Part shown: in pieces, positions 6,645 to 64,000 of the stretch
Numbering within the stretch: position 1 is the stretch's first letter
Layout: each line of letters opens with the position of its first letter
Assembly (NCBI RefSeq): GCF_029227855.1
Contig: NZ_CP074356.1
Source of the DNA: Escherichia coli
GTDB taxonomy: Bacteria; Pseudomonadota; Gammaproteobacteria; Enterobacterales; Enterobacteriaceae
Length of the DNA stretch: 64,000 bases
Reading direction: 5' to 3' (one strand)
The notes under the pieces: model-generated
Told to the model about the DNA's origin: nothing
Seen by the model: the letters and a program-made list of their open reading frames with translations, nothing else
Databases searched by the model: none
Made by a program: the position numbers and the translations under genes

Positions 6645-6800
6645 TTACAAGAACCAGGGGCGGAAATTCCAGCCCTCTCGATTGTTACGTAGCACGGACA
6701 GACTATACGCCTGATGGTCGTTCCCCATCGGGCCTGAAAACCGCAATACGCTGGGTAACAATCTTCGAGGGTAGCAGTTAACGCTGCTACCCTCTTTTTT
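6640..6800 (+). ncRNA. sroC: SroC-like sRNA processed from the gltI-gltJ spacer (GcvB sponge)
   Basis: Position at gltI 3' end/gltI-gltJ spacer ending at a strong intrinsic terminator matches the known location of SroC; 5' boundary approximate. Confidence 0.5.
6767..6800 (+). terminator. Intra-operon intrinsic terminator between gltI and gltJ
   Basis: Perfect 11-bp stem gagggtagcag/ctgctaccctc with loop ttaacg followed by tttttt. Confidence 0.8.
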
Positions 6801-6813
6801 CTGGAGTAGATTT

Positions 6814-28005: not shown

Positions 28006-28036
28006 AAAAAAAACCCGCTGATTAAGCGGGTTTTGA
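28006..28036. terminator. Bidirectional intrinsic terminator between crcB and cspE
   Basis: aaaaaaacccgct-gatta-agcgggtttt. Confidence 0.8.
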
Positions 28037-28053
28037 ATTCTTGCTGACGTATC

Positions 28054-28263
28054 TTACAGAGCGATTACGTTTGCAGCAGAAGGGCCTTTGGCACCGTTAG
28101 TGATTTCGAACTCTACGCGCTGACCTTCAGCAAGAGTTTTAAAACCATTAGTCTGGATTGCAGAGAAGTGTACAAACACGTCTTTGCTGCCGTCTTCCGG
28201 AGTAATGAAACCGAATCCTTTGGACTCATTAAACCACTTAACGTTACCTTTAATCTTAGACAT
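28054..28263 (-). CDS. cspE: Cold-shock-domain protein CspE
   Basis: 69 aa from [20 protein letters not shown]; RNP1/RNP2 motifs. Confidence 0.95.
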
Positions 28264-28437
28264 CAAAATTACCTTTACATGAAAAATAGACACAAATGCT
28301 GTGTCGGTTACCAGTACACCAATTGTGGTACGCTTTGTCCAGTGCAACTTTACTAAAAAGTGATAAAAGTCGCGTTATTTTTGATGTTAATTATTTTACC
28401 CATTGATTTTAAAGAGTTTACTAAAATTTCATTTGTC

Positions 28438-41358: not shown

Positions 41359-41504
41359 TCCTCTGATTTACAAAACACGCTAATTCGTCTTCCATAAACC
41401 ATGACGATTAAGATTTATACATAATGCGCTACATTGAGGAATTCCCTGAATGTGACGCAAATCACTTCAAAGAGTGAGCAACAGTCAGTATCATCATGTG
41501 AGTT

Positions 41505-41537
41505 AAACCCTCGCCGCCTGACGGTGAGGGTTTTCTT
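41505..41537 (+). terminator. Probable native rna terminator just upstream of the IS200 left end
   Basis: aaaccctcgccg-cctga-cggtgagggttt followed by tcttg. Confidence 0.55.
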
Positions 41538-42246
41538 GTGCACAGAAAACCCCCAGCTAGGCTGGGGGTTCCGGAAAGCTTTCAGCTTTGAGCCTGTTAT
41601 TAAAACCCCTTTTGATTTGTTAAAACACCTTGCGGTCTGGCAACTGCAAGTGTCAAACAAGAAATCAAAAGGGGGTCCCAATGGGGAACGAAAAGAGCTT
41701 AGCGCACACCCGATGGAACTGTAAATATCACATAGTTTTTGCGCCAAAATACCGAAGACAGGTGTTCTACAGAGAGAAGCGTAGAGCAATAGGCAGTATT
41801 TTGAGAAAGCTGTGTGAGTGGAAAAGCGTACGGATTCTGGAAGCTGAATGCTGTGCAGATCATATCCATATGCTTGTGGAGATCCCGCCTAAAATGAGCG
41901 TATCCGGGTTTATGGGATATCTGAAAGGGAAAAGCAGTCTGATGCTTTACGAGCAGTTTGGTGATTTGAAATTCAAATACAGGAACAGGGAGTTCTGGTG
42001 CAGAGGGTACTACGTCGATACAGTGGGTAAGAACACGGCGAAGATACAGGATTACACAAAGCACCAGCTTGAAGAGGATAAAATGGGAGAGCAGTTATCG
42101 ATTCCCTATCCGGGCAGCCCGTTTACGGGCCGTAAGTAACGAAGTTGGATGCAAATGTCAGATCGTGTGCGCCTGTTAGGGCGCGGCTGGTAAGAGAGCC
42201 TTATAGGCGCATTTGAAAAACCTCCGGCTATGCCGGAGGATATTTA
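41538..42246 (+). mobile_element. IS200-family insertion sequence (IS200/IS605 family), boundaries approximate
   Basis: Single Y1 HUH transposase ORF with left-end hairpin (41549..41569), 69-nt stem sequestering the tnpA RBS (41606..41674) and right-end hairpin (42221..42239); about 709 bp, no terminal inverted repeats. Confidence 0.6.
41681..42139 (+). CDS. tnpA: IS200 transposase TnpA (HUH single-strand transposase)
   Basis: 152 aa; HuH motif (DHIHMLV) and C-terminal Tyr region; aaaggggg RBS. Confidence 0.93.
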   Translation: MGNEKSLAHTRWNCKYHIVFAPKYRRQVFYREKRRAIGSILRKLCEWKSVRILEAECCADHIHMLVEIPPKMSVSGFMGYLKGKSSLMLYEQFGDLKFKYRNREFWCRGYYVDTVGKNTAKIQDYTKHQLEEDKMGEQLSIPYPGSPFTGRK

Positions 42247-42299
42247 TTTTTGGGTATGTTTATCTGCGACACTCGCAGTACCGACGACATGGAGTAAAA

Positions 42300-42710
42300 A
42301 TGTCCAGACCAACTATCATCATTAACGACCTGGATGCCGAACGCATCGATATTCTGCTGGAGCAACCCGCCTATGCTGGTTTGCCAATCGCCGACGCGTT
42401 AAACGCAGAGTTGGATCGCGCCCAAATGTGTTCGCCAGAAGAGATGCCACACGACGTGGTGACAATGAACAGCCGGGTTAAATTCCGCAATCTTAGCGAT
42501 GGCGAAGTGCGTGTGCGCACGCTGGTGTATCCGGCAAAAATGACCGACAGCAATACTCAGCTTTCCGTTATGGCTCCGGTAGGTGCCGCACTGCTGGGGC
42601 TGCGCGTTGGCGATTCCATTCACTGGGAACTTCCGGGCGGCGTTGCAACCCACCTTGAAGTGCTGGAACTCGAATACCAGCCAGAAGCTGCTGGCGACTA
42701 CCTGCTTTAA
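42300..42710 (+). CDS. rnk: Regulator of nucleoside diphosphate kinase Rnk (GreA/GreB-like)
   Basis: 136 aa from [12 protein letters not shown]; ggag RBS. Confidence 0.93.
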
Positions 42711-43509: not shown

Positions 43510-43548
43510 TCCCGCCCTGCCCGGAGCCATCCCGGCGGGGCTTTTTAT
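43510..43548 (+). terminator. Intrinsic terminator after uspG
   Basis: cccgcc...ggcgggg hairpin followed by cttttt. Confidence 0.55.
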
Positions 43549-43553
43549 TGCCA

Positions 43554-43590
43554 TAAAAAAGCCGCCAGGTTTGACCCCGGCGGCTAAGCA
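43554..43590 (-). terminator. Intrinsic terminator after ahpF
   Basis: Minus-strand hairpin agccgccgggg...cctggcggct followed by tttttt. Confidence 0.6.
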
Positions 43591-43614
43591 ATTGCAGGTG
43601 AATCTTACTTCTTC

Positions 43615-45180
43615 TTATGCTGTTTTGGTGCGAATCAGGTAGTCAAAAGCACTCAGAGAGGCTTTGGCACCTTCGCCAGTGGCGATGATGATCTGCTTGT
43701 ACGGAACCGTTGTACAGTCACCCGCTGCGAACACGCCTTTCACGTTGGTTTCGCATTTCGCATCAATGATAATCTCGCCCATGCGGTTACGTTCGACTGC
43801 GCCTTCGAGCCAGTTGGTGTTCGGCAGCAGACCAATCTGCACGAAAATACCGGCCAGTTCGATGTTGTGAATATCGCCGCTGACACGATCGCGATATTCC
43901 AGACCAACGACTTTGCTGCCGTCGCCTTTCACTTCCGTGGTTTGCGCATTCAGAATAATGTCGACGTTTTTCAGGCTGCGCAGTTTGTCCTGCAGAACCT
44001 GGTCGGCTTTCATTTCTGGCGCAAATTCCAGCAGAGTTACGTGCTCAACGATACCCGCCAGGTCGATTGCTGCTTCCACGCCGGAGTTACCGCCGCCGAT
44101 AACCGCTACGCGTTTACCTTTAAACAGCGGGCCGTCGCAGTGCGGGCAGTAGGTCACGCCTTTGGTGCGATACTGATCTTCGCCCGGAACGTTCATGTTG
44201 CGCCATTTTGCACCGGTCGCCACGATAATGCTGCGCGCTTTCAGTACCGCGCCGGAAGCTGTTTCAATCTGATGCAGGCCACCTTCAACCGCTGCCGGGA
44301 TCAGTTTGCTGGCGCTCTGGCTGTCGATCACATCAACATCGTATTCATCAACGTGAACTTTCAGTGCCCCTGCCAGCTTCTGCCCTTCGGTCTTCGGTAC
44401 AGAAATGTAGTTTTCGATATCAACGGTATCGAGGATCTGACCACCAAAACGTTCGCCCATCAAACCAGTACGGATACCTTTACGTGCGGAGTAAATTGCT
44501 GCCGCTGCACCCGCCGGGCCGGAACCGACGATTAATACGTCATAAGCATCACGCTTGTTCAGCTCTTCTGCCGCACGTTTTTCCGCGCCAGTATCAATTT
44601 TGGCGACGATTTCAGTCAACGTCATGCGACCCTGACCAAACTCTTTCCCGTTTACGAACACTGCCGGAACGCCCATCACGTTGCGATCGGTGATTTCGTT
44701 CTGGAAGGTGCCGCCGTCAATTGCAGTGTGCTTGATGCGCGGGTTCAGTACGCTCATCAGGTTCAGCGCCTGCACCACGTCCGGGCAGTTGTGGCAAGAG
44801 AGCGAGTAATAGGTTTCGAATTCAAAATCACCGTCAATATGGCGAATCTGCTCCAGCAGAGACTGCGCTTCTTTCGACGGATGACCACCGGTCCACAACA
44901 ACGCCAGTACCAGCGAGGTAAACTCGTGGCCCAGCGGGGAACCTGCAAAACGTGGCCCCTGGTTAGAACCTGGGTTAGTGATCAGGAAAGACGGCTTACG
45001 CACCGGCAAGCTGTTATCTTCTTTAAAGGTGACTTTGTCTGACAGTTCTGCGATTTCAGCCAACAGTTCCTTGATTTCTGCCGATTTAGCGCTGTCATCC
45101 AGCGTGGCAATTAACTCAACAGGCTTGGTCAATTTCTCAAGGTAAGCCTTGAGTTGAGTTTTCATATTTGTGTCGAGCAT
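43615..45180 (-). CDS. ahpF: Alkyl hydroperoxide reductase subunit F
   Basis: 521 aa from [10 protein letters not shown]; two redox CxxC centres (CHNCP, CPHCDGP) and FAD/NAD-binding GxGxxG. Confidence 0.95.
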
Positions 45181-45350
45181 GTTTATCTCCTGGGCTTTAA
45201 ACATCATCATGCAAGCGGCCTCTGCGGCTACCTGGATGCAGCTTGCATCATGGTGCGGGGAAGAAAATCGGGTGCCGCAGCACCCGAAGAATTAGGTGAA
45301 TTTCCGAAGTATTTCGCGCCGGAGTTGGTAGCGCGAAAGACGAAGGAAAT

Positions 45351-45914
45351 TTAGATTTTACCAACCAGGTCCAGAGACGGAGCCAGAGTTGCTTCACCTT
45401 CTTTCCATTTAGCCGGGCAAACTTCACCTGGGTGAGAAGCTACGTACTGTGCTGCTTTGATTTTACGCAGCAGGTCAGACGCGTCACGGCCAATGCCTTC
45501 AGCGGTAACTTCGATTGCCTGGATGATACCCTGCGGGTCAACAACGAAGGTCGCACGGTCAGCCAGACCTTCATCTTCACGCATGTTGTCGAAGTTACGG
45601 GTCAGGGCGCCAGTCGGGTCGCCGATCATCGCATATTTGATTTTAGCGATGGTTTCAGAGCTGCTGTGCCATGCTTTGTGGGTGAAGTGAGTATCGGTAG
45701 ATACTGCGTATACGTCTACGCCCAGTTTCTGCAGTTCTTCGTAGTGGTCAGCAACGTCACCCAGTTCGGTCGGGCATACGAAAGTAAAGTCAGCCGGGTA
45801 GAAGAAGAAGACGCTCCAGCGGCCTTCGGTATCTTTTTCGGTGATTTCGATGAATTCGCCGTTTTTGAATGCCTGGTTTTTAAAAGGTTTAATTTTGGTG
45901 TTAATCAAGGACAT
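45351..45914 (-). CDS. ahpC: Alkyl hydroperoxide reductase subunit C (2-Cys peroxiredoxin)
   Basis: 187 aa; peroxidatic Cys in FTFVCPTE and resolving Cys near C-terminus. Confidence 0.96.
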
Positions 45915-46285
45915 CTATACTTCCTCCGTGTTTTCGATGAGATGTAAGGTAACCAATTTTTGCCGATTCGGCTAATGCGTTTCCATTATCAAATCGATAA
46001 GTTTTACCTTACAACCTTCGTAAGACAACTTTGTGAACTTTGCACCGCCAGCGGCGATAAAAAGTAAAATGGCCCCCTTTCCAGGTGACCGTGTAATCTG
46101 AACTACCCTTTGGTATCTTCAGCGCCTGCCTGCAGGCTGAGGTGTTGCCCTTACAAATGCAACAACGACATGGATTACAACACCCTCATAAACAAAGGGC
46201 AATCACCTGATCTAAGCTCTTACCTATGACAGTGATAGGTTATGCCTTTTACCCGACTTTTGCACTGACTGAAAAGGACAAATTA

Positions 46286-47032
46286 ATGTTAAAAAAGATA
46301 CTTTTACTGGCTCTGCTTCCTGCAATCGCCTTCGCAGAGGAACTTCCTGATCCAGTAAAAGCGATTGAAAAACAGGGTATTACGATCATCAAAACATTCG
46401 ATGCTCCCGGAGGAATGAAAGGTTATCTCGGAAAGTATCAGGATATGGGCGTCACCATCTACCTGACTCCAGATGGTAAGCACGCTATCTCCGGTTACAT
46501 GTACAACGAGAAAGGTGAAAACCTGAGTAACACACTTATCGAAAAAGAAATTTACGCACCAGCCGGACGCGAAATGTGGCAACGGATGGAACAATCCCAC
46601 TGGCTCCTCGACGGTAAAAAAGATGCGCCGGTCATTGTCTACGTCTTCGCCGATCCTTTCTGCCCATATTGTAAACAGTTCTGGCAGCAGGCTCGTCCGT
46701 GGGTAGATTCTGGCAAAGTGCAATTAAGAACATTGTTGGTTGGCGTTATCAAGCCAGAAAGCCCGGCGACAGCAGCGGCAATTCTTGCCGCCAAAGATCC
46801 CGCAAAAACCTGGCAAGAATATGAAGCCTCTGGTGGCAAGCTTAAGCTAAACGTGCCTGCAAACGTAAGTACAGAGCAAATGAAAGTGTTAAGCGATAAC
46901 GAGAAACTGATGGACGATCTGGGGGCAAATGTCACGCCAGCTATCTATTACATGAGTAAGGAAAATACACTGCAACAGGCCGTGGGGTTGCCCGATCAGA
47001 AAACGCTTAATATCATTATGGGGAATAAATAA
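46286..47032 (+). CDS. dsbG: Periplasmic thiol:disulfide oxidoreductase DsbG
   Basis: 248 aa from [17 protein letters not shown]; CPYC active site; in-frame upstream ATG at 46226. Confidence 0.92.
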
Positions 47033-47240
47033 AAGATAATTCATGGATGGTTGAACTATATCCCTGCTTTTCAACCATCCTAAAAAAGCATGAATTGCTC
47101 GCTCTGCCCTAAGTGGCTGTGCTATTTTAGTAAAACTTAATCCTGAGTTAAGCAAAAAAACATAATCAATAAAAATATATACGCAAAAAACATTGATTAA
47201 GTGAATATACCATGGAAGAAAAATATAACCGGAGTAGTGT

Positions 47241-48143
47241 ATGGCCAATCTCTACGACTTGAAAAAGTTCGACTTAAATCTTCTTGTCATATTTGAGTGT
47301 ATTTATCAGCATTTAAGCATTAGCAAGGCTGCTGAATCACTATATATCACCCCGTCAGCCGTGAGCCAGTCGTTACAACGCTTACGTGCGCAATTTAATG
47401 ACCCTTTATTCATTCGCTCAGGAAAAGGTATCGCGCCGACGACGACAGGGTTAAATCTGCATCACCATCTTGAGAAAAACCTCAGAGGCCTTGAACAAAC
47501 AATTAATATAGTCAATAAGTCCGAACTAAAGAAAAACTTTATTATCTACGGCCCTCAGCTCATTTCTTGCTCTAATAATAGTATGCTGATCCGCTGCCTA
47601 CGGCAAGATGCCTCTGTCGAGATTGAGTGCCATGATATCCTCATGTCAGCAGAGAATGCTGAAGAACTGTTGGTTCACCGCAAAGCCGATCTGGTGATCA
47701 CCCAAATGCCAGTGATCAGCCGTTCCGTCATTTGCATGCCATTGCATACAATTCGCAATACTCTAATTTGTAGTAATAAGCATCCGCGAATTACTGACAA
47801 TAGCACTTATGAACAAATTATGACAGAAGAGTTCACCCAATTAATATCCAAATCAGCAGGAGTTGATGATATTCAAATGGAAATAGACGAGAAGTTTATG
47901 AATCGCAAAATTTCATTTCGTGGTTCCTCTTTGCTGACAATCATTAATAGCATTGCAGTTACAGATTTACTGGGAATAGTCCCCTATGAACTTTATAACT
48001 CCCACCGTGACTTTCTTAATTTAAAAGAGATAAAACTAGAACATCCGTTACCTTCAATAAAGCTTTACATTTCCTATAATAAATCTTCTTTAAATAATTT
48101 GGTGTTCTCCCGATTTATTGATCGTCTAAATGAGAGTTTTTGA
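47241..48143 (+). CDS. ybdO: LysR-family transcriptional regulator YbdO
   Basis: 300 aa; N-terminal LysR HTH; strongly AT-rich coding sequence. Confidence 0.9.
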   Translation: MANLYDLKKFDLNLLVIFECIYQHLSISKAAESLYITPSAVSQSLQRLRAQFNDPLFIRSGKGIAPTTTGLNLHHHLEKNLRGLEQTINIVNKSELKKNFIIYGPQLISCSNNSMLIRCLRQDASVEIECHDILMSAENAEELLVHRKADLVITQMPVISRSVICMPLHTIRNTLICSNKHPRITDNSTYEQIMTEEFTQLISKSAGVDDIQMEIDEKFMNRKISFRGSSLLTIINSIAVTDLLGIVPYELYNSHRDFLNLKEIKLEHPLPSIKLYISYNKSSLNNLVFSRFIDRLNESF

Positions 48144-48289
48144 TATATAACCTCAGACAGCTATTATAACTTTCACCTATTTATTCACAGCACGAATGAA
48201 AAATAAAACACTCTGCTTTTCAGTGTTTACTTTATAATTAACAGTCTTATCTCACTGATCACCCCGTAACGTTCAGAGAGCGTTTTCAG

Positions 48290-49510
48290 ATGTCTATTTA
48301 TAAAATCCCGCTTCCACTGAATATTCTGGAAGCTGCAAAAGAACGTATTACCTGGACACTTAACACCCTACCCCGTGTCTGCGTTTCTTTTTCGGGTGGT
48401 AAAGATTCCGGATTAATGCTGCATCTGACCGCCGAACTTGCCCGACAAATGGGCAAAAAAATTTGTGTTTTATTTATCGACTGGGAAGCTCAGTTCTCTT
48501 GCACCATTAACTATGTTCAGTCCCTGCGCGAGTTGTACACCGATGTCATCGAAGAGTTTTACTGGGTTGCGCTCCCGCTTACAACGCAAAATTCCCTATC
48601 ACAATACCAACCCGAATGGCAGTGCTGGGAACCTGATGTCGAATGGGTACGTCAGCCCCCGCAAGATGCGATAACCGATCCTGACTTTTTCTCCTTTTAC
48701 CAGCCTGGCATGACCTTCGAACAATTTGTGCGTGAGTTTGCCGAATGGTTTTCGCAAAAACGTCCGGCGGCGATGATGATCGGCATCCGTGCGGATGAGT
48801 CCTACAACCGTTTTGTCGCCATCGCCAGTTTAAATAAACAACGTTTTGCCGATGATAAGCCCTGGACTACTGCCGCACCAGGCGGTCATAGCTGGTACAT
48901 ATACCCCATCTACGACTGGAAAGTCGCTGATATCTGGACCTGGTATGCTAGCCATCAACGCCTCTGTAACCCACTGTATAATATAATGTATCAGGCAGGC
49001 GTTCCTCTACGTCATATGCGAATTTGCGAACCTTTTGGTCCGGAACAACGGCAAGGATTATGGCTCTATCACGTTATCGAACCGGATCGCTGGGCTGCTA
49101 TGTGCGCACGAGTCAGCGGGGTAAAAAGTGGCGGCATTTACGCCGGACATGACAACCATTTTTATGGTCATCGGAAAATCCTCAAGCCCGAACATTTAGA
49201 CTGGCAGGAGTATGCATTATTGCTACTCAACAGCATGCCGGAGAAAACAGCTGAGCATTATCGCAATAAAATCGCCATTTATTTGCACTGGTATCAGAAA
49301 AAAGGCATCGAGGTTCCACAAACCCAGCAAGGGGACATTGGCGCGAAAGATATCCCCTCCTGGCGGCGAATATGCAAAGTTTTACTCAATAACGATTACT
49401 GGTGTCGGGCATTATCATTTAGCCCGACCAAAGCGAAGAACTATCAGCGTTATAACGAACGAATAAAAGGAAAACGTCAGGAATGGGGGATACTATGCAA
49501 CAACGATTAA
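48290..49510 (+). CDS. ybdN: PP-loop ATP pyrophosphatase of the PAPS-reductase superfamily, YbdN
   Basis: 406 aa; PP-loop SGGKDS (in VSFSGGKDSGLM) near N-terminus; 3' end overlaps ybdM. Confidence 0.9.
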   Translation: MSIYKIPLPLNILEAAKERITWTLNTLPRVCVSFSGGKDSGLMLHLTAELARQMGKKICVLFIDWEAQFSCTINYVQSLRELYTDVIEEFYWVALPLTTQNSLSQYQPEWQCWEPDVEWVRQPPQDAITDPDFFSFYQPGMTFEQFVREFAEWFSQKRPAAMMIGIRADESYNRFVAIASLNKQRFADDKPWTTAAPGGHSWYIYPIYDWKVADIWTWYASHQRLCNPLYNIMYQAGVPLRHMRICEPFGPEQRQGLWLYHVIEPDRWAAMCARVSGVKSGGIYAGHDNHFYGHRKILKPEHLDWQEYALLLLNSMPEKTAEHYRNKIAIYLHWYQKKGIEVPQTQQGDIGAKDIPSWRRICKVLLNNDYWCRALSFSPTKAKNYQRYNERIKGKRQEWGILCNND

Positions 49511-50112
49511 CGCAGGATTTAACCCAATTTCTCGCCAGCTTGCCGGAAGACGATCGCATCAAAGCGATTAATGAAATCCGCATGGCGATCCATCAGGTTA
49601 GCCCCTTTCGAGAAGAGCCAGTGGATTGCGTTCTGTGGGTTAAAAACAGCCAACTTATGCCTAATGATTACAACCCAAACAACGTGGCACCACCCGAAAA
49701 AAAACTGCTGAAAAAATCCATTGAAATAGATGGTTTTACCCAACCCATTGTGGTCACGCATACGGATAAAAATGCCCTGGAAATCGTGGATGGTTTTCAC
49801 CGCCATGAAATTGGTAAAGGCTCATCATCGTTAAAATTACGCTTAAAAGGTTATTTGCCGGTGACCTGTCTGGAAGGTACGCGTAATCAACGCATCGCCG
49901 CGACTATTCGTCATAATCGCGCCCGTGGACGTCACCAAATCACTGCCATGTCAGAAATCGTCCGTGAACTCAGCCAGTTGGGATGGGACGATCATAAAAT
50001 CGGCAAAGAGCTGGGAATGGACAGCGACGAAGTGCTACGCCTGAAGCAAATTAACGGCCTGCAAGAGTTGTTTGCCGACCGTCAATATTCCCGCGCCTGG
50101 ACGGTTAAATAG
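49483..50112 (+). CDS. ybdM: ParB/sulfiredoxin-like domain protein YbdM
   Basis: 209 aa; ParB N-domain-like signature (PIVV...ALEIVDGFHRH); alternative ATG at 49495 has a better-spaced ggggga RBS. Confidence 0.88.
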   Translation: MGDTMQQRLTQDLTQFLASLPEDDRIKAINEIRMAIHQVSPFREEPVDCVLWVKNSQLMPNDYNPNNVAPPEKKLLKKSIEIDGFTQPIVVTHTDKNALEIVDGFHRHEIGKGSSSLKLRLKGYLPVTCLEGTRNQRIAATIRHNRARGRHQITAMSEIVRELSQLGWDDHKIGKELGMDSDEVLRLKQINGLQELFADRQYSRAWTVK

Positions 50113-51382: not shown

Positions 51383-52471
51383 ATGCCTCACAATCCTATC
51401 CGCGTGGTCGTCGGCCCGGCTAACTACTTTTCACATCCAGGAAGTTTCAATCACCTGCACGATTTTTTCACTGATGAACAACTTTCTCGCGCGGTGTGGA
51501 TCTACGGCGAACGCGCCATTGCTGCGGCGCAAACAAAACTTCCGCCAGCGTTTGAACTGCCAGGGGCAAAGCATATTTTGTTTCGCGGCCATTGCAGCGA
51601 AAGCGATGTACAACAACTGGCGGCTGAGTCCGGTGACGATCGCAGCGTGGTGATTGGCGTCGGCGGCGGCGCACTGCTCGACACCGCGAAAGCCCTCGCC
51701 CGCCGTCTCGGTCTGCCGTTTGTTGCCGTTCCGACGATCGCCGCCACCTGCGCCGCCTGGACACCGCTCTCCGTCTGGTATAACGATGCCGGACAGGCGC
51801 TGCATTATGAGATTTTCGACGACGCCAATTTTATGGTGCTGGTGGAACCGGAGATTATCCTCAATGCGCCGCAAGAATATCTGCTGGCGGGGATCGGTGA
51901 CACGCTGGCGAAATGGTATGAAGCGGTGGTGCTGGCTCCGCAACCAGAAACGTTGCCGCTAACCGTGCGGCTAGGGATCAATAATGCGCAGGCTATTCGC
52001 GACGTCTTGTTAAACAGTAGCGAACAGGCGCTGAGCGATCAGCAAAATCACCAGTTAACGCAATCATTTTGCGATGTGGTGGATGCGATTATCGCCGGAG
52101 GTGGAATGGTCGGTGGTCTGGGCGATCGTTTTACGCGTGTGGCGGCGGCCCATGCCGTGCATAACGGTCTAACCGTGCTGCCGCAAACCGAGAAGTTTCT
52201 TCACGGCACCAAAGTCGCCTACGGAATTCTGGTGCAAAGCGCCTTGCTGGGTCAGGATGATGTGCTGGCGCAATTAACTGGAGCGTATCAGCGTTTTCAT
52301 CTGCCGACTACGCTGGCGGAGCTGGAAGTGGATATCAATAATCAGGCGGAGATCGACAAAGTGATTGCCCACACCTTGCGTCCGGTGGAATCCATTCATT
52401 ACCTGCCGGTCACGCTGACACCGGATACGTTGCGTGCAGCGTTCGAAAAAGTGGAATCGTTTAAAGCCTGA
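51383..52471 (+). CDS. ybdH: Iron-containing (glycerol dehydrogenase-like) hydroxycarboxylate dehydrogenase YbdH
   Basis: 362 aa; GGGxxxD nucleotide-binding motif (GVGGGALLDTAK). Confidence 0.92.
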   Translation: MPHNPIRVVVGPANYFSHPGSFNHLHDFFTDEQLSRAVWIYGERAIAAAQTKLPPAFELPGAKHILFRGHCSESDVQQLAAESGDDRSVVIGVGGGALLDTAKALARRLGLPFVAVPTIAATCAAWTPLSVWYNDAGQALHYEIFDDANFMVLVEPEIILNAPQEYLLAGIGDTLAKWYEAVVLAPQPETLPLTVRLGINNAQAIRDVLLNSSEQALSDQQNHQLTQSFCDVVDAIIAGGGMVGGLGDRFTRVAAAHAVHNGLTVLPQTEKFLHGTKVAYGILVQSALLGQDDVLAQLTGAYQRFHLPTTLAELEVDINNQAEIDKVIAHTLRPVESIHYLPVTLTPDTLRAAFEKVESFKA

Positions 52472-52480
52472 CGTACATAT

Positions 52481-52678
52481 TTAGCAGCAGCGCGCGCCGC
52501 CTTTTCCACCGTAGCGCGCGTCCTGCCGCTCACGGAAAAACTCCTCGTAGGTCATCGGCGTTTGATCGGGATGGTTAACCCGCATATGTTCGACATAGTT
52601 GTCGTAATCAGGCATACCAATCATCAGTTTCGCCGCCTGACCTAAATATTTTCCGGCTTTTGCCAGTGAATCAAACAT
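52481..52678 (-). CDS. ybdD: DUF466 small protein YbdD
   Basis: 65 aa ORF directly downstream of cstA on the same strand. Confidence 0.85.
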
Positions 52679-52790
52679 CTAAACCTCCGGTAATACAAAT
52701 GCCCTCCTGAATTAAGAGGGCTTAATTGCTATCAACACGCTCGGGCTGAGAGTAAGGGGAACGCTCAGCACATCCCCCCTCACTCTGACT

Positions 52791-54896
52791 TTAGTGCGCG
52801 CCTTTCGCCTGCGCCACGATCTCCTCGACATTTTCCGGCATTGGCTCATACGGCGTTTCTTTCGCCGTTGGCTTCGGCTCTTTCAATGCCGCCAGTGCCG
52901 TCTTAATCGAGAACAGCGCCAGAACCACCACGACCACCATAAAGAAGATGGTTAACCCGGCATCCAGACGGTTGTTGAACACCAGTTGCGCCAGCTGTGA
53001 CTCAGTATACTGCGACGGAATATTGCCGCTGTCGATCATTGCCTGGAACTTATTAGCAATGGCCAGGAAGCCGACTTTCGCATCCGGGCTAAACGCTTTC
53101 TGCCAGCCTGCGGTCAGGGTACAAATCAGCAGCCAGGCCGTTGGTACCAGCGCCACCCAGGCGTAACGTTGACGTTTCATTTTGAACAGCACCACAGCAC
53201 AGAGCATCAGCGCCATCCCTGCCAGCATCTGGTTGGCAATACCAAACAGCGGCCACAAGGTGTTAATACCGCCCAGCGGATCGACCACACCCTGATGGAG
53301 GAAATAGCCCCACGCCAGTACGCACAGCGCCGTTGCCAGCAGGTTAGCAGGCAGTGAATCGGTCCGTTTCAGGCCCGGAGACACCACGCCCAGCAGATCC
53401 TGCAACATAAAGCGCGCAGCACGCGTACCTGCATCCACCGCCGTCAGAATAAACAGTGCTTCAAACAAAATGGCGAAGTGATACCAGAACGCCACATCCA
53501 TCATGCCGCCCAGCGCGCCGTGCAGAATGTAGGCCATCCCCACCGCCAGCGTCGGCGCACCGCCCGCACGGGAAATGATCGACTGTTCACCCACTTCGCT
53601 GGCAATCTGGTTGAGCGTATCTGGTGTAATGCTAAAGCCCCAGCTACTCACCACCTGCGCGGCAGAAGCGACTACATCCGCCGTCCCTGCAGGAGCCAGC
53701 ACCGCCATCGGGCTGTTCATGGCGAAGTACACACCTGGATCGATGATACAGGCGGAAACCAGCGCCATAATCGCCACGAAGGATTCCATCAACATCCCAC
53801 CGTAGCCGATAAAGCACGCCTGCCCTTCGTTCGCCAGCATCTTCGGCGTGGTGCCGGAAGAGATCAGCGCATGGAAGCCAGACACCGCGCCACAGGCGAT
53901 GGTGATAAACAGGAACGGGAACAGGTTACCGGTCCATACCGGGCCAGTGCCATCGACAAATTTAGTTAGCGCAGGCATGGTCAGCGTCGGGCGCATAATC
54001 AAAATGCCCACCGCCAGACCGACGATAGTCCCGATTTTCAGGAAGGTAGAGAGGTAGTCACGCGGAGCCAGCAGCAACCACACCGGCAGCACCGCCGCCA
54101 CAAAACCGTAACCCACCAGCATCCAGGTCAGCTGCACGCCGGTAAAGTCAAAGTACGGTGCCCAGGTCGGACTTTCTGCCACCCAGCCGCCAGAGATAAT
54201 GGCGAAAATCAGGAACACCAGACCAATCACCGACACTTCGCCAATACGCCCCGGACGCAAATAGCGCAGGTAGATCCCCATGAACAGCGCCAGCGGAATG
54301 GTGAACGCAACGGTATACGTTCCCCACGGGCTATGAGTCAGGGCTTTCACCACGATCATCGCCAGCACGGCAAGGATAATGACCATGATCATAAAGCAGG
54401 CCACCAGCGCAATCACCCCGGCGGTTGGCCCCATCTCTTCTTTGACCAACTCACCCAGCGAGCGACCATCGCGGCGCGTAGAAACAAACAGCACCATGAA
54501 ATCTTGCACCGCACCGGCGAGAACCACCCCAGCGAGCAGCCAGATCATCCCCGGCAGGTAGCCCATTTGCGCTGCCAGCACCGGCCCCACCAATGGACCT
54601 GCTCCGGCGATGGCCGCAAAATGGTGACCGAACAGCACTTTCTTGTCCGTCGGCACATAGTCCAGCCCGTCGTTATGGCGCACCGCGGGCGTCATACGCG
54701 TCGGGTCAACCGCCAGCACATTTTTGGCGATATACAGACCATAAAAACGGTAAGCGATCAGATAGATACAGACCGACGCCACCACAATCCACAGCGCATT
54801 GATCTGTTCCCCACGATTTAAAGCAATATATCCCAGAGCAAATGCTCCCATTACAGAGAGCACTGTCCAGACGAGGTATTTCCCTGATTTGTTCAT
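52791..54896 (-). CDS. cstA: Carbon starvation protein A (peptide/pyruvate transporter family)
   Basis: 701 aa polytopic membrane protein. Confidence 0.95.
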   Translation of the reverse strand: MNKSGKYLVWTVLSVMGAFALGYIALNRGEQINALWIVVASVCIYLIAYRFYGLYIAKNVLAVDPTRMTPAVRHNDGLDYVPTDKKVLFGHHFAAIAGAGPLVGPVLAAQMGYLPGMIWLLAGVVLAGAVQDFMVLFVSTRRDGRSLGELVKEEMGPTAGVIALVACFMIMVIILAVLAMIVVKALTHSPWGTYTVAFTIPLALFMGIYLRYLRPGRIGEVSVIGLVFLIFAIISGGWVAESPTWAPYFDFTGVQLTWMLVGYGFVAAVLPVWLLLAPRDYLSTFLKIGTIVGLAVGILIMRPTLTMPALTKFVDGTGPVWTGNLFPFLFITIACGAVSGFHALISSGTTPKMLANEGQACFIGYGGMLMESFVAIMALVSACIIDPGVYFAMNSPMAVLAPAGTADVVASAAQVVSSWGFSITPDTLNQIASEVGEQSIISRAGGAPTLAVGMAYILHGALGGMMDVAFWYHFAILFEALFILTAVDAGTRAARFMLQDLLGVVSPGLKRTDSLPANLLATALCVLAWGYFLHQGVVDPLGGINTLWPLFGIANQMLAGMALMLCAVVLFKMKRQRYAWVALVPTAWLLICTLTAGWQKAFSPDAKVGFLAIANKFQAMIDSGNIPSQYTESQLAQLVFNNRLDAGLTIFFMVVVVVLALFSIKTALAALKEPKPTAKETPYEPMPENVEEIVAQAKGAH

Positions 54897-55016
54897 AGTT
54901 GTTATCCGTGTGCGTGTCCATAGAGATGTTACATTTTGTTTCTATAACATCTTTGTGCAATTTAACAACACAGCAACCATGTAAATCGGAGTTGAAACCA
55001 ATATTTAACTTAACAA

Positions 55017-55032
55017 TGTTAACTCGATCACT
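55017..55032. promoter_or_regulatory. Candidate CRP site upstream of cstA
   Basis: TGTTA-N6-TCACT, 8/10 match to TGTGA-N6-TCACA, about 120 bp upstream of cstA ATG. Confidence 0.3.
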
Positions 55033-55076
55033 CCGTTAACCGAGTTTTCCTGCAATCTCATTTAATTCTGTCGGGC

Positions 55077-56238
<1,162 letters not shown>

Positions 56239-56239
<1 letters not shown>

Positions 56240-57096
56240 TATTTCACCTCGCGGGAAAGTAGCTTCCACCAGGCGTCGATGGTCGGGTTTTTCGCCAGCA
56301 TGACAAAGTCGATATCGCCATGCACTTTGCGCCAGCGCGCCGCCAGCGCCATCATCCGCACCGAATCCAGACCGTAGTCGATCAGGTTGTCGTCATCGAA
56401 CGGTTCATCGGACTCGTCCAGCAACGGCAGGATCACCTCACGCAGCGCCGCTTTGCTGGCGGGGACAGGTGCTGGCAGCAATTCTTCGGTCATCACCACC
56501 CGGCCAGAACGTCCGGCCACATATTTCAGCGACATCAAATGCTCGTCACGGCTGAAATCAGCCAGCGCATCCGCCACCATAAACGGTTTAATATCGCGCA
56601 TAAATGCGTCCGTTGCGGTGGTCATACAGCCAATGTGGGCATATACCCCGGTAATAATCAGCTGGTTACGTCCACTCTCTTTCAGCATTTGCTCCAGCGG
56701 GGAACGATGAAACGCGCTGTAGCGCCACTTCACCAGCACCGTGTCGTCGGCATCTGGCGTCAGGCGATCCACCACCTTTTGCTGTTCCGGCGAACGGGTC
56801 AGGCCAGGCCCCCACATATCATTCAACAGCGCCCGATCTTCATCGCTCTGCTCTTTCGGCTGGGCGGTGTAATAAACCGGGATATTGTGCTGTTTGCAGT
56901 AGTCGCGTAGTGCCGCAATATTCGCGATCACCTGCTCCATCATCGGGCAGTTCTCGCCCCAGAAGCTGACAAAATAGTCCTGCATATCATGGATTAACAA
57001 CGCGGCACGTTGCGGTTCAAAGGCCCAGTCAACTTTATTCTGCGGAATATCGTGAGACTCCGGCAGTGCGTAAGCCTGTAATTTTGGAATAGCCAT
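56239..57096 (-). CDS. entB: Isochorismatase / aryl carrier protein EntB
   Basis: 285 aa; N-terminal isochorismatase, C-terminal ArCP domain. Confidence 0.95.
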
Positions 57097-57109
57097 CGTG
57101 TTCTCTCCT

Positions 57110-58720
57110 TCAGGCTGATGCGCGTGACGCCAGCCACTGACGTAATTGTTTTTTATCGACTTTCCCGACCGCCGTCAGCGGAAGTGAATCCACACACTCC
57201 ACGCGATCCGGTAATTTAAATTCGGCAATACCCTGTTCACGCAGGAAACGACGCACCTGCACCGCGCGTAGAGGCTCTTTTACCACCAGATAAGCACAGC
57301 TTTTTTCGCCCATCAGCTCATCTTCCATACTCACCAGTGCGGCGTAGATCACCGCCGGATGGCGCAGCAGCAGGTTTTCGATCTCTTCGGCAGCGATCTT
57401 CTCGCCGCCACGGTTGATCTGATCTTTCTCGCGCCCCTGCACGGTGATGTACCCCTCTGGATCAATAGAGATCAGATCACCAGAACAGTAAAAACCGTTG
57501 GCATCAAAGGCGCTGGCATTGTGCTGCGGGCTTTTGTAATAGCCGCGGAAGGTGTACGGACCGCGCGTCATCAGGCGTCCGACTTCCCCTTGCGGCAGTG
57601 GATTTCCTTCGGCATCGGCAACCCACACTTCATCGTCCGGACACATTGGATAGCCCTGGGTATGGATTATTTTCTCCGCGCTATCATCAAGTCGGGTGTA
57701 GTTCACCAGTCCTTCCGCCATGCCGAATACCTGCTGTAACTGGCAGCCAATCTCTGCGGGAATACGCGCCGCAAGCGTGGCAGAAAGACGTGCACCACCG
57801 ACCTGTAACAGTTTCAGCGAGGCAAGCTGCGCCCGGCTTTCGCCTTCGGTCAGCGCCTGTAACCACAGGCTGACTGCGGGTGGCACCAGCGCGGTGACGT
57901 TCACCTGATGTTTTTCAATCAATGGGAAGCAGAGCGTGGCGCTGGGGTCGGCAGCCAGAACGACAGTGCCGCCAGCGAGAAATACGCCCAGCGATCCTGG
58001 CGAACTCATGGCGTAGTTATGAGCCGCCGGGATCGCGCACAGGTAGCGTGTCTGTTGTGTGAACTGACAAATCTCGACGCTACGACGCACGCTGTAGTAA
58101 TAGTCGTTATGAGTGCGCGGGATCAGTTTCGGTGTGCCGGTGGTGCCGCCGGAAAGCTGGAAATAGGCCACTTCATCAGCAGGTGACGGCGTGGCAGTAA
58201 AATCCTCAGCCGGATGGTTAATCGCATCCTGCAAATTATGCTCACCGCTGTCGTTGTGCAGTTGCACCACGCGAATGGAGGAATGCTCTGCAACAAATGT
58301 ATTGAGGAAATCATCTCCGCTAAACAGCGCATGCTGGCGATCGGCAATCAGTAACGCCGGTTCAATCTGGCTGGCATAGGCGTTCAGTTCACTACGCTGA
58401 TGGCTGAACAGCGCCAGCACCGGCGAAACGCCCAGTTTCAGCAGCGCGAAAAAAGTAATGTAAAGTTCAGCGACGTTACCCAGTTGTACCAGCGCAGTTT
58501 CACCAGGTTTAATGCCCTGACGGCGCAAACTACACGCGAGGTTATCCGCCGCCTGATTCAGCTCCCGGTAACTCAACTGCCGCTCGCCGTCGATGACCGC
58601 GATGCTGTCGCTTGCGGCATGACGGGTCAGAATGTCGGTCAGCGGCAAATCCTGCCAGTAGCCTTTTTCCCGATAGCGACGGGCAAACTCTTCCGGCCAG
58701 CGGGTGAATGGAATGCTCAT
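57110..58720 (-). CDS. entE: 2,3-dihydroxybenzoate-AMP ligase EntE
   Basis: 536 aa; AMP-binding motif SGGTTGTPK. Confidence 0.95.
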
Positions 58721-58729
58721 CCTCACTCC

Positions 58730-59905
<1,176 letters not shown>

Positions 59906-59934
59906 ATCATCCTCCACAAAATGATAAAGGCTTT

Positions 59935-59954
59935 AATAATGATTATCATTTATA
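59935..59954. promoter_or_regulatory. Fur box in the entC-fepB divergent promoter region
   Basis: taataatgattatcatttat closely matches the 19-bp Fur consensus GATAATGATAATCATTATC. Confidence 0.7.
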
Positions 59955-60093
59955 TTTTCGGTCGCTAACCTAAAAGCAAACGCGCACTATGTCAACTCTT
60001 GAGGTAACGCAATCTGCAACTCGGGGTTGCATCTGGTTGTGGTTACAATGAAAATGAGAAGCATTAACTTCATTAATAACAGGAAGCTGATTT

Positions 60094-61050
60094 GTGAGAC
60101 TCGCCTCGCTCTACCGCAACGCCCTTCTATTAACAGGACTTTTGCTTTCAGGAATAGTCGCAGTTCAGGCCGCCGACTGGCCGCGTCAGATTACTGACAG
60201 CCGGGGCACTCATACCCTGGAAAGCCAGCCGCAGCGTATTGTTTCCACCAGCGTCACCCTGACTGGCTCACTGCTGGCGATTGATGCTCCGGTGATTGCC
60301 AGCGGCGCGACCACGCCGAATAACCGCGTCGCGGATGACCAGGGCTTTTTACGCCAGTGGAGCAAGGTGGCGAAAGAACGCAAACTGCAACGGCTCTATA
60401 TCGGCGAACCGAGCGCCGAAGCCGTTGCCGCGCAAATGCCGGATTTGATTTTAATTAGCGCAACCGGCGGGGATTCGGCGCTGGCGCTGTATGATCAGCT
60501 TTCCACCATCGCCCCGACATTAATCATCAATTACGACGACAAAAGCTGGCAGTCGCTGTTAACGCAACTTGGCGAAATTACCGGGCATGAGAAACAAGCG
60601 GCAGAGCGGATTGCACAGTTTGATAAGCAACTGGCAGCGGCGAAAGAGCAAATCAAATTACCGCCGCAGCCGGTCACTGCCATTGTCTATACCGCCGCTG
60701 CACACAGTGCCAATCTCTGGACGCCGGAATCAGCACAAGGGCAGATGCTGGAACAACTCGGCTTTACGTTGGCGAAATTGCCCGCAGGGTTAAACGCCAG
60801 CCAAAGCCAGGGCAAACGCCATGACATCATTCAGCTTGGTGGTGAAAATCTGGCTGCAGGGTTAAATGGCGAGTCACTATTCCTGTTCGCCGGTGATCAG
60901 AAAGATGCCGATGCTATTTATGCCAATCCACTGCTCGCGCACCTGCCCGCAGTACAAAACAAGCAGGTTTATGCGCTGGGAACCGAGACGTTCCGACTGG
61001 ATTACTACAGCGCCATGCAAGTGCTGGAACGACTTAAGGCGCTGTTTTAA
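60094..61050 (+). CDS. fepB: Ferric enterobactin periplasmic binding protein FepB
   Basis: 318 aa, GTG start, signal peptide. Confidence 0.94.
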
Positions 61051-61053
61051 GCA

Positions 61054-62304
61054 TTAACTGTCGGACGCTGCCACCTGCGGCGGCGTCTGGCGAAAACGTC
61101 GCAACTCCACCAGCACCAGCAACAACAACACGCCGATAATCAACAAACCAAAACCGCTCGCGCTTGCGGAAGCAACCGGTGTCATCATCGCGCCCAAACC
61201 GCCCAGCAGCGCCGCGCCTATGGCATCGCCCGTCACGTTTTGCGCCGTCCACAAACCGTTAATCCGCCCTAACATCGCTTCCGGGGTTTGCGTTTGCAGC
61301 ATTGTGTATTGCAGCAACGAACTAACCGCGCTCAGCCAGCCGAACAGCGCCAGACAAACCACGCCTAAAATCCACATCGGCATCAGGCCAAACAGACCAA
61401 TGGCGAGGAACGATCCCAGCGTGGAAAGCAGCATCAATAACCCTGGTCGCGCGCTATGTGCCAGCTTACCGCTGGTTAACGCGCCAATAGCCGCGCCGAG
61501 CGGGATCGCCGCATAGAGAAAACCAATCTGTGCCGCCGACATCTGCCAGTTGTCAGCCAGCGCCGGATACAGTACCCGCACCGCGCTCGCCATCGTCAAT
61601 AAACCACCCAGCAGCGCAATCCCTCCCACCAGCGGGCTGGCGAGCAGAAAACGAAATCCTGCCAGTAATGATTTCAACGGATGCTCACGCGGCTGCGGTG
61701 GCGGTGGCAACGCCGGAAGGCTTAACAACGGTAGCAAGGTAATAAACGTGCCCGCCGCCGCCAGCCCGTAGTTCCAGGCCACACCGCCGGTCGCCAGCAA
61801 TAAACCGCCAATCATAGGCGAAATCACCGACCCCAGACGCACGGTCAACATGGTGATCGCCCCGGCCTGCATTAAGTTTTCACGCCCTACCAGTGCAGGT
61901 GTCGCCGCCAGTAGCGCCGTAACGCCAAGCGATGCGAAAAAACCATCCCATAATCCGAGTAAATAGATTGCCAGCAAAGATGGCTCCGGCAGCAACGCGT
62001 TCAGGCACAGTCCAATGAAGCCAATGCCACAGGTGCCGCGCGCCAGCAAAATCACTTTTTTGCGCTCATACCGATCCGCCAGCACACCGCCGACCATCAG
62101 GCCAACAAACATCGCCCCGCCGGTCAGCGTTACCGAAAGCCCCACCTGCCAGGTAGAATGCGTCATCATCTGGATCTGCACCGGCACCGCGACGCCGAGC
62201 AAACCCAGAGACACAATTGAGATAAAACGAGCGAGGAATACTGCGCGAAACGCCGGGTGCGTTTTCAACAGGCTGAGGTTAAGCAGCCAGGATTGTTTAT
62301 TCAT
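61054..62304 (-). CDS. entS: Enterobactin exporter EntS (MFS)
   Basis: 416 aa 12-TM MFS transporter. Confidence 0.95.
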
Positions 62305-62377
62305 TACAATGCCTTGCCATCAAATATTTTAAATACCTATTCTTAGGCTGCACATGCTAACATATCCAAATAAGATC

Positions 62378-62402
62378 GATAACGATAATTAATTTCATTA
62401 TC
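62378..62402. promoter_or_regulatory. Fur box(es) in the entS-fepD divergent promoter region
   Basis: gataacgataattaatttcattatc contains overlapping GATAAT-type hexamers matching Fur consensus. Confidence 0.65.
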
Positions 62403-62414
62403 ATGGAAGTTCGT

Positions 62415-63419
62415 ATGTCTGGTTCTGTTGCCGTGACACGCGCCATTGCCGTGCCCGGATTGCTGTTATTACTGATTATCGCGACGGCATTAAGCCTGCT
62501 CATTGGGGCAAAATCACTCCCCGCTTCCGTAGTGCTGGAGGCGCTCTCCGGCACCTGCCAGAGCGCCGACTGCACCATTGTGCTCGACGCCCGTCTGCCG
62601 CGCACCCTTGCCGGTTTACTGGCAGGCGGTGCGCTTGGGCTTGCCGGGGCGCTGATGCAAACCCTCACCCGAAACCCACTTGCCGACCCCGGCTTGCTTG
62701 GCGTGAACGCCGGAGCCAGCTTTGCCATTGTGCTGGGTGCGGCGCTGTTTGGTTACTCTTCCGCACAGGAACAACTGGCGATGGCCTTCGCCGGGGCGCT
62801 GGTGGCCTCATTGATTGTTGCCTTTACCGGCAGCCAGGGCGGCGGGCAGTTAAGTCCGGTGCGTTTAACCCTGGCGGGCGTGGCACTGGCGGCGGTGCTG
62901 GAAGGGCTGACCAGCGGCATCGCCCTGCTTAATCCTGACGTCTACGATCAGTTGCGTTTCTGGCAAGCCGGTTCGCTGGATATTCGCAATCTACATACCT
63001 TAAAAGTGGTGCTGATCCCGGTGCTGATCGCCGGAGCAACCGCGCTATTACTGAGCCGCGCGCTGAACAGTTTAAGCCTCGGCAGTGACACCGCGACGGC
63101 GCTGGGTAGTCGCGTGGCGCGCACACAGTTGATTGGTCTGCTGGCGATTACCGTGCTTTGTGGTAGTGCGACGGCGGTAGTTGGCCCGATTGCCTTTATT
63201 GGCCTGATGATGCCGCATATGGCACGTTGGTTGGTGGGTGCCGATCATCGCTGGTCGCTGCCCGTCACGCTGCTTGCTACCCCTGCCCTGCTGCTGTTTG
63301 CCGATATCATCGGGCGGGTGATTGTGCCCGGCGAACTGCGCGTTTCTGTAGTCAGTGCCTTTATTGGCGCACCGGTGCTGATCTTCCTCGTGCGACGTAA
63401 AACGCGAGGTGGCGCATGA
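62415..63419 (+). CDS. fepD: Ferric enterobactin ABC transporter permease FepD
   Basis: 334 aa from MSGSVAVTRAI (in-frame ATG also at 62403); FecCD-family permease. Confidence 0.93.
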   Translation: MSGSVAVTRAIAVPGLLLLLIIATALSLLIGAKSLPASVVLEALSGTCQSADCTIVLDARLPRTLAGLLAGGALGLAGALMQTLTRNPLADPGLLGVNAGASFAIVLGAALFGYSSAQEQLAMAFAGALVASLIVAFTGSQGGGQLSPVRLTLAGVALAAVLEGLTSGIALLNPDVYDQLRFWQAGSLDIRNLHTLKVVLIPVLIAGATALLLSRALNSLSLGSDTATALGSRVARTQLIGLLAITVLCGSATAVVGPIAFIGLMMPHMARWLVGADHRWSLPVTLLATPALLLFADIIGRVIVPGELRVSVVSAFIGAPVLIFLVRRKTRGGA

Positions 63420-64000
63420 TTTACGTCTCTCGCCGATTAATCATCACCTGTTTGCTGCTAATTACCGCCTGTGTGGTTGCAGGTATCTGGGGATTACGCA
63501 GCGGTGCCGTCACGCTGGAAACCTCGCAGATATTCGCCGCGCTGATGGGCGATGCGCCGCGCAGTATGACGATGGTGGTCACCGAATGGCGTTTACCACG
63601 CGTGCTGATGGCGCTGTTAATTGGCGCGGCTCTGGGCGTCAGCGGCGCGATTTTTCAGTCGCTGATGCGTAACCCGCTCGGCAGCCCTGACGTAATGGGC
63701 TTTAACACCGGGGCGTGGAGCGGCGTGCTGGTGGCGATGGTGCTGTTTGGTCAGGACCTGACGGCTATCGCCCTGGCAGCAATGGTGGGCGGCATTGTCA
63801 CCTCGCTGCTGGTCTGGCTGCTTGCCTGGCGTAACGGTATCGACACCTTTCGGTTAATTATTATCGGTATCGGTGTTCGCGCCATGCTGGTGGCCTTTAA
63901 TACCTGGTTGTTGCTGAAAGCGTCTTTAGAAACGGCGCTAACAGCGGGTTTGTGGAATGCCGGATCGCTCAACGGCCTGACGTGGGCAAAAACCTCGCCT
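63416..64000 (+). CDS. fepG: Ferric enterobactin ABC transporter permease FepG, 5' portion (3' end lies outside the window)
   Basis: ATG at 63416 overlapping fepD stop (ATGA); open frame to window end; absent from ORF track because no stop is reached. Confidence 0.9.
   Translation, partial: MIYVSRRLIITCLLLITACVVAGIWGLRSGAVTLETSQIFAALMGDAPRSMTMVVTEWRLPRVLMALLIGAALGVSGAIFQSLMRNPLGSPDVMGFNTGAWSGVLVAMVLFGQDLTAIALAAMVGGIVTSLLVWLLAWRNGIDTFRLIIIGIGVRAMLVAFNTWLLLKASLETALTAGLWNAGSLNGLTWAKTSP

Follow-up and report, generated by a model that had tools for sequence, protein, structure and literature searches.

In E. coli K-12, Fur controls three divergent regions of the enterobactin cluster. For the fepB-entC operator region (Brickman, Ozenberger and McIntosh 1990, cited in Chen 2007), "two distinctly protected regions" are described (Chen 2007, PMC2189734). 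The fepDGC-entS (ybdA) region is a bidirectional promoter (Christoffersen 2001; Lavrrar 2002, cited in Chen 2007). According to the table in which Chen 2007 (PMC2189734) gives the data of Lavrrar and McIntosh, two Fur dimers bind the fepB oligonucleotide and three bind the entS oligonucleotide. The third region is the bidirectional fepA-fes Fur operator (Hunt 1994; Escolar 1998). In nine E. coli strains, including CFT073, the fep and ent genes were assigned to the core Fur regulon by ChIP-exo and fur-deletion RNA-seq (Gao et al. 2023, PMC10164565). The stretch of E. coli DNA that we analysed (64,000 nucleotides, hereafter the window) contains the first two regions. The fepA-fes operator resembles them in having a Fur array in a divergent promoter region of the ent cluster; it differs in that it lies outside the window, beyond fepG, fepC, fepE and entF, and it served as a training site for our matrix.

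The right-hand part of the enterobactin cluster occupies positions 52000-64000 of the window, in the orientation opposite to that of K-12 (Table 1). The order of the divergent pairs, with entC and entS on the minus strand and fepB and fepD on the plus strand, agrees with how RefSeq annotates near-identical E. coli records. After fepD, the window also takes in the start of fepG. Between positions 40000 and 64000, a single base distinguishes the window from E. coli JNEC-KY178 (NZ_AP045174.1). An 801-bp query spanning the entC-fepB region had matches of 95-100% identity in 5,417 of the 5,426 complete E. coli genomes. In strain Z1323HEC0462, the entC-fepB query (59600-60400) is 100% identical and positions 1-41537 of the window are about 99% identical, but the ahpF-ybdN segment (43543-50001) is only about 95% identical. 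This mosaic pattern of sequence identity suggests recombination.

Table 1. Genes, Fur operators, footprinted sequences and predicted promoters of the enterobactin control regions in the window
Feature	Position	Strand	Details
cstA, entH, entA, entB, entE	within 52000-64000		ORF list and RefSeq annotation of matching records
entC, first gene of entCEBAH	58730..59905	-	391 aa, ATG at 59905; ORF list and RefSeq NZ_AP045174.1
entC-fepB intergenic region	59906..60093		188 bp (374 bp in K-12)
K-12 entC Fur DNase I footprint sequence	59911..59959		49 bp, exact match (coordinates from Chen 2007, Table 3)
entC Fur box	59935..59953		19.1 bits; PWM scan and consensus search; AATAATGATTATCATTTAT
Predicted entC promoter	59967..59995	-	-35 TTGACA 59995-59990, 17-bp spacer, -10 TAGGTT 59972-59967
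Predicted fepB promoter	60027..60055	+	-35 TTGCAT 60027-60032, 17-bp spacer, -10 GAAAAT 60050-60055
fepB Fur box	60050..60068		17.8 bits, fourth PWM score of the window; GAAAATGAGAAGCATTAAC
Empty site	60066..60067		K-12 has here a 186-bp hairpin repeat flanked by TTA, absent from the window
fepB	60094..61050	+	318 aa, GTG start; ORF list and RefSeq annotation
entS (ybdA)	61054..62304	-	416 aa; ORF list and RefSeq annotation
entS-fepD intergenic region	62305..62414		110 bp, identical to K-12
K-12 fepD-entS Fur footprint sequence	62365..62433		69 bp, exact match; reaches the first 19 nt of fepD
Shared fepD/entS operator	62378..62402		boxes 62378-62396 (18.1 bits) and 62384-62402 (22.1 bits); GATAACGATAATTAATTTCATTATC
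fepD	62415..63419	+	334 aa from the annotated, conserved ATG

In order to compare these regions with the described operators, the footprint coordinates of Chen 2007 were converted to NC_000913.3, and the extracted strings were matched exactly against the window. This is the comparison with K-12 footprints that the initial annotation had proposed. The entC and fepD-entS footprints are present base for base, and the fepB footprint is present over 23 of its 31 bp. Published Fur footprints and gel shifts cover sequences identical to these sites (Chen 2007, PMC2189734). In the fepDGC-entS region, the whole intergenic DNA and the footprinted stretch are the same as in K-12, the overlapping sites have the same offset of 6 bp, and no difference was detected. 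The fepB-entC region shares with K-12 the two separate regions that Fur protects there, the sequence of the entC footprint, and the fepB box core and promoter blocks up to position 60066. It differs in the last 8 bp of the fepB footprint and in two further bases just downstream, and K-12 has a 186-bp repeat after the fepB box, which accounts for its longer intergenic region.

To score the sites, we built a symmetric 19-bp Fur matrix from nine DNase I-footprinted K-12 sites (fepA-fes, fur, tonB, cir, sodA, fecA, fecI, fhuF1 and fhuF2; coordinates from Table 3 of Chen et al. 2007, PMC2189734). All of them lie outside the window, so the sites under study did not validate themselves. With this small basis of nine sites, the resulting consensus is GATAATGATAATCATTATC, and the training sites score 10.8-23.5 bits, or 7.1-21.5 bits when each is left out in turn. 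It turned out that the four highest scores of the 64-kb window belong to 62384-62402 (22.1 bits), 59935-59953 (19.1), 62378-62396 (18.1) and 60050-60068 (17.8), all in the two divergent enterobactin control regions. A PWM scan was the other check put forward by the initial annotation; its boxes head the whole window, and none of them fell below the threshold that would have counted against them. All four sites score above the weakest training site and agree with the consensus at 15-16 of 19 positions. The fifth-best match has 14.1 bits, which is about the mean maximum of 200 dinucleotide-preserving shuffles (14.13 bits). Two matches at this level lie in coding sequences, at 63853-63871 in fepG (14.1 bits) and at 60441-60459 in fepB (12.8 bits). 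They are probably due to chance, since their scores are those of the best matches in shuffled windows.

The intergenic DNA is AT-rich, the palindromes contain promoter-like hexamers according to a sigma-70 scan, and in the rest of the window weak matches (8-14 bits) are about twice as frequent as in shuffles. It could be supposed from this that the sites are chance AT-rich sequence of the promoter type with no specific repressor function. However, we observed four matches of at least 15 bits against 0.35 expected per dinucleotide-shuffled window, and all four are concentrated in the two ent control regions. The position 62384-62402 is the only one in the window within three mismatches of GATAATGATAATCATTATC, and 100 shuffles gave no such match. 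The 15-bp Fur core AATGATAATCATTAT is matched perfectly once in the window, at 59936-59950 on the reverse strand; 100 shuffles contained no copy of it, also when one mismatch was tolerated. Moreover, the sequences are those of footprinted DNA, and the boxes are kept between genera while the adjacent bases drift. The probability of a chance origin is negligible, and this reading is effectively already refuted.

AT-rich arrays can attract nucleoid proteins in general. No result of our analysis favours H-NS, Fis, IHF or Zur as the main proteins bound to these sites instead of Fur. The matrix trained on Fur sites only scores them as high as its best training sites, and it is Fur that gave the published footprints and gel shifts on identical sequences, so binding mainly by other proteins is very improbable. 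We are highly confident that the sites are the classical Fe2+-Fur operators of the enterobactin cluster. Fur binding and the iron- and fur-dependent regulation are described in the literature for the identical K-12 DNA and, by analogy, should apply to the window. The initial annotation called the boxes expected biology, and this is a fair description: it is the textbook Fur regulation of the ent cluster, with the boxes within K-12-footprinted sequence.

We also compared the regions between genera. Species-representative genomes were scanned with the 17-mer AATGAAAATGAGAAGCA of the fepB box. The pattern is short, and most of its 120 matches were chance matches in unrelated phyla. Only 14 enterobacterial loci were used: E. 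albertii, a second E. coli, about 11 Citrobacter and Siccibacter colletis. As the loci were picked by the fepB 17-mer, conservation of the fepB box in them is not independent evidence. In the alignment, the entC box shows little or no variation in E. albertii, Citrobacter and Siccibacter. The fepD-entS array CGATAACGATAATTA.T.TCATTATCA does not vary among Escherichia, Citrobacter and Siccibacter, and its flanks do; this operator reaches 22-24 bits in all loci that extend far enough to contain it and had no role in choosing the loci. Compared with the non-coding DNA around them, the entC box and the fepD-entS array are thus more strongly conserved. The conserved blocks of the entC-fepB region are the entC Shine-Dalgarno sequence, the entC Fur box, TTGACA-17-TAGGTT, TTGCAT and the fepB box, and the spacers between the blocks vary freely.

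Each operator consists of overlapping sites offset by 6 bp, which start at 59929/59935/59941, 60044/60050 and 62372/62378/62384 in the PWM scan. These clusters agree with those described by Chen 2007 (PMC2189734) and leave room for several Fur dimers. At entC, the main box is accompanied by two weaker shifted sites, at 59929-59947 (10.7 bits) and 59941-59959 (9.9 bits). The box reported at 59935 between entC and fepB was borne out by its score, its perfect core and its footprint-identical DNA. The TTGACA and TAGGTT hexamers are kept across genera, and the spacer between them varies. From these hexamers, we predict the entC start near 59960. With such a start, the Fur box would lie at about +8 to +26, and the footprint would extend from +1 onward. 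Within the Fur palindrome of entC, the sigma-70 scan had picked ATGATA-17-TATCAT on either strand; this candidate was not adopted because the blocks conserved across genera give TTGACA-17-TAGGTT.

A second operator of this region lies at the fepB promoter, about 115 bp from the entC operator, centre to centre. The initial annotation listed only one box between entC and fepB; that box is real, and leaving out the one at 60050-60068 was an omission and not an error. Of the 31 bp in the K-12 fepB footprint, the first 23 match the window at 60044-60066, and the last 8 (TTGATGGA) are replaced in the window by ACTTCATT. The 19-mer scores 17.8 bits here and 18.6 bits in K-12; judged by its sequence, the change of the operator relative to K-12 has a small effect on the box score. 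The hexamer TTGCAT is invariant in 14 aligned sequences, the spacer after it varies, and the GTG and the AGGAAG Shine-Dalgarno sequence of fepB are kept across genera. The hexamers of the sigma-70 scan that lie inside the Fur palindrome were not used for fepB, since the conserved blocks give TTGCAT-17-GAAAAT. The fepB start is predicted near 60062, and the fepB Fur box would then cover the -10 element through about +7. The predicted entC and fepB starts (59960 and 60062) are about 102 bp apart. Brickman et al. reportedly placed the two start sites about 103 bp apart in 1990, and the predicted positions fit this distance. A perfect 6-bp inverted repeat, TGCAAC-N5-GTTGCA, is present at 60015-60031 and overlaps the fepB -35 hexamer TTGCAT. 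It is probably incidental because its left arm is unconserved in Citrobacter and E. albertii.

The operator between entS and fepD is made of two overlapping 19-mers offset by 6 bp, with a weak third site at 62372-62390 (7.4 bits). Near-consensus Fur boxes had been claimed at 62378..62402, and the scores of both boxes together with the footprint-identical DNA support this. No strong sigma-70 match overlaps the fepD-entS cluster (Chen 2007, PMC2189734). The candidate TCGATA-17-TATCAT, given for fepD by the sigma-70 scan, was not adopted, since TATCAT is TATCAG in Citrobacter. An in-frame ATG is present at 62403-62405, 12 nt upstream of the annotated fepD start, and the longest ORF would then have 338 aa. 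In Citrobacter this ATG is not kept (ATCAGG), but the ATG at 62415 and the GGAAG Shine-Dalgarno sequence are. Since it is the ATG at 62415 and not that at 62403 that is conserved, the 3' end of the operator lies 12 nt ahead of the real fepD start. The operator was also said to abut the fepD start region. This holds for the upstream ATG, which it adjoins; it does not hold for the annotated start 12 nt away.

The main difference from K-12 is in the fepB leader. The K-12-type 186-bp repeat between the fepB operator and the Shine-Dalgarno sequence is absent from the alignment of the window, which has the 188-bp empty-site form. The K-12 insertion follows directly after GCATTA (position 60066 of the window) with duplicated TTA flanks (positions 4042-4227 of the K-12 locus L001), and the rest of the region is the same except for the two bases just past the junction. 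As a result of the insertion, the predicted fepB leader is about 218 nt long in K-12 versus about 32 nt here. The K-12 insert has imperfect terminal inverted repeats of 24 nt and G-rich/C-rich internal palindromes, and the K-12 leader folds into a hairpin of -94.4 kcal/mol (z = -5.8). The short leader of the window is unstructured (z = +0.8). With Rfam, the K-12 region yielded only miRNA-like matches below threshold on the insert, which reflect the long hairpin, and no match was found in the ent region of the window.

The K-12 insert belongs to the dispersed BoxC/PIT/HPG1 family of G-rich hairpin repeats; the window is without the element and has only the empty site. BoxC/PIT elements were described by Holder et al. 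2015 (PMC4666352), and a copy of the "HPG1" motif between fepB and entC was listed at 624603 by Kaplan et al. 2016 (PMC5100583). Sequences similar to the insert occur at a median of six places per genome, and its core aligns to four other K-12 copies at 72-93%. We also asked whether the insert, over its full 186 bp, forms a MITE that has ends of its own; these four copies share only the core, at most positions 38-179. The MITE status of the insert is thus unproven, despite the TTA flanks and the terminal inverted repeats.

Both forms of the leader are common in E. coli. Of the 5,426 complete genomes, 2,721 have a match over at least 80% of the insert. Among 59 genomes sampled at even spacing, 29 had the short form, 28 the 186-bp insert and 2 a 180-bp version. 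The 180-bp version is found in some O157-like genomes, and STEC313 (locus L003) has a version of 111 bp. The short form is shared by E. albertii, nearly all Citrobacter loci and Siccibacter, in which the distance to the fepB GTG is also unchanged. Since these outgroups carry the short form, it is ancestral and the K-12 form is derived. In Citrobacter amalonaticus (locus L070), an unrelated insert of about 85 bp is located at the same point of the leader, just after AATGAAAATGAGAAGCATTAA, with the Fur box on one side and the Shine-Dalgarno sequence on the other. Insertions thus seem to be tolerated or attracted at this spot of the fepB leader.

The junction falls at position 17/18 of the 19-bp fepB box, inside the K-12 footprint, and the very stable hairpin of K-12 has no counterpart in the leader of the window. 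We assessed whether the fepB operator may be functionally altered here, so that fepB would be repressed or translated unlike in K-12, with entC, entS and fepD regulated as in K-12. We consider this unlikely. The PWM score barely moves, and the short form is not only ancestral but also occurs in about half of the complete E. coli genomes. The entC-fepB region of CFT073 is also 188 bp long and has one mismatch to the window, outside the operators. The regulon data for CFT073 give in vivo support for the short 188-bp form, since this strain keeps the fep genes in the core Fur regulon; if anything, it is K-12 that is derived. It is conceivable, though rather doubtful, that the insert at about +5 of the fepB transcript is a lineage-specific modifier of fepB expression, which would act through Fur flank contacts, mRNA stability or translation.

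Several other elements were noted in the window. An IS200C-family element (41531-42248; context 41434-42710) separates the coding sequence of rnk from its leader (Rfam RF01771, 41434-41542). The tnpA ORF of the element is at about 41681-42139, and an Rfam match to STnc490 (41548-41671) also falls inside the element. The exact junction of the rnk leader with IS200C was found in one of the 5,426 complete E. coli genomes, that of JNEC-KY178, where 24 places match the junction query, which consists mostly of IS200C. This insertion may uncouple rnk from its leader. The Rfam matches above the gathering threshold also include the sRNA sroC at 6640-6802, adjoining gltI; a cspA-type thermoregulator 5'UTR on cspE at 28006-28364 (minus strand); and STnc70 at 46059-46152 (minus strand), between ahpC and dsbG. 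These three are expected RNAs of the core genome.

These Fur operators lie in the two divergent ent/fep intergenic regions and overlap conserved candidate promoter blocks, whose exact hexamers and start sites are predicted from the sequence. When iron is plentiful, Fe2+-Fur dimers would bind the overlapping 19-bp arrays and block RNA polymerase; when iron falls, Fur would leave, and the four transcription units would be expressed. In the entC-fepB region, two independent operators would serve back-to-back promoters: that of entC is placed just downstream of the predicted -10 element and start, and that of fepB covers the predicted -10 element and start. In the 110 bp between entS and fepD, one array of two strong sites and one weak site would lie between and over both opposing promoter candidates. 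A single array serving both promoters would mean that both transcripts are repressed together.

The Fur operators described here are already known biology, and they add nothing new for the biology of Fur. The initial annotation concluded that the iron-regulated architecture is intact. This is fair for the operators that it named, which lie in sequence identical to footprinted K-12 DNA; the fepB leader, without the 186-bp repeat, is not that of K-12 base for base. Judged by its operators, this clinical-type strain would have retained the usual regulation of enterobactin by Fur, at the levels of synthesis (entCEBAH), export (entS) and uptake (fepB, fepDGC). The K-12 fepB-entC region used for the classic footprinting carries a derived repeat insertion, and therefore K-12 coordinates and leader features are not directly transferable to the approximately 50% of E. 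coli with the short form, among them CFT073 and the strain of the window. If the insert does modify fepB expression, the strain of the window would show the ancestral unmodified state, and the textbook architecture of K-12 would be the derived one.
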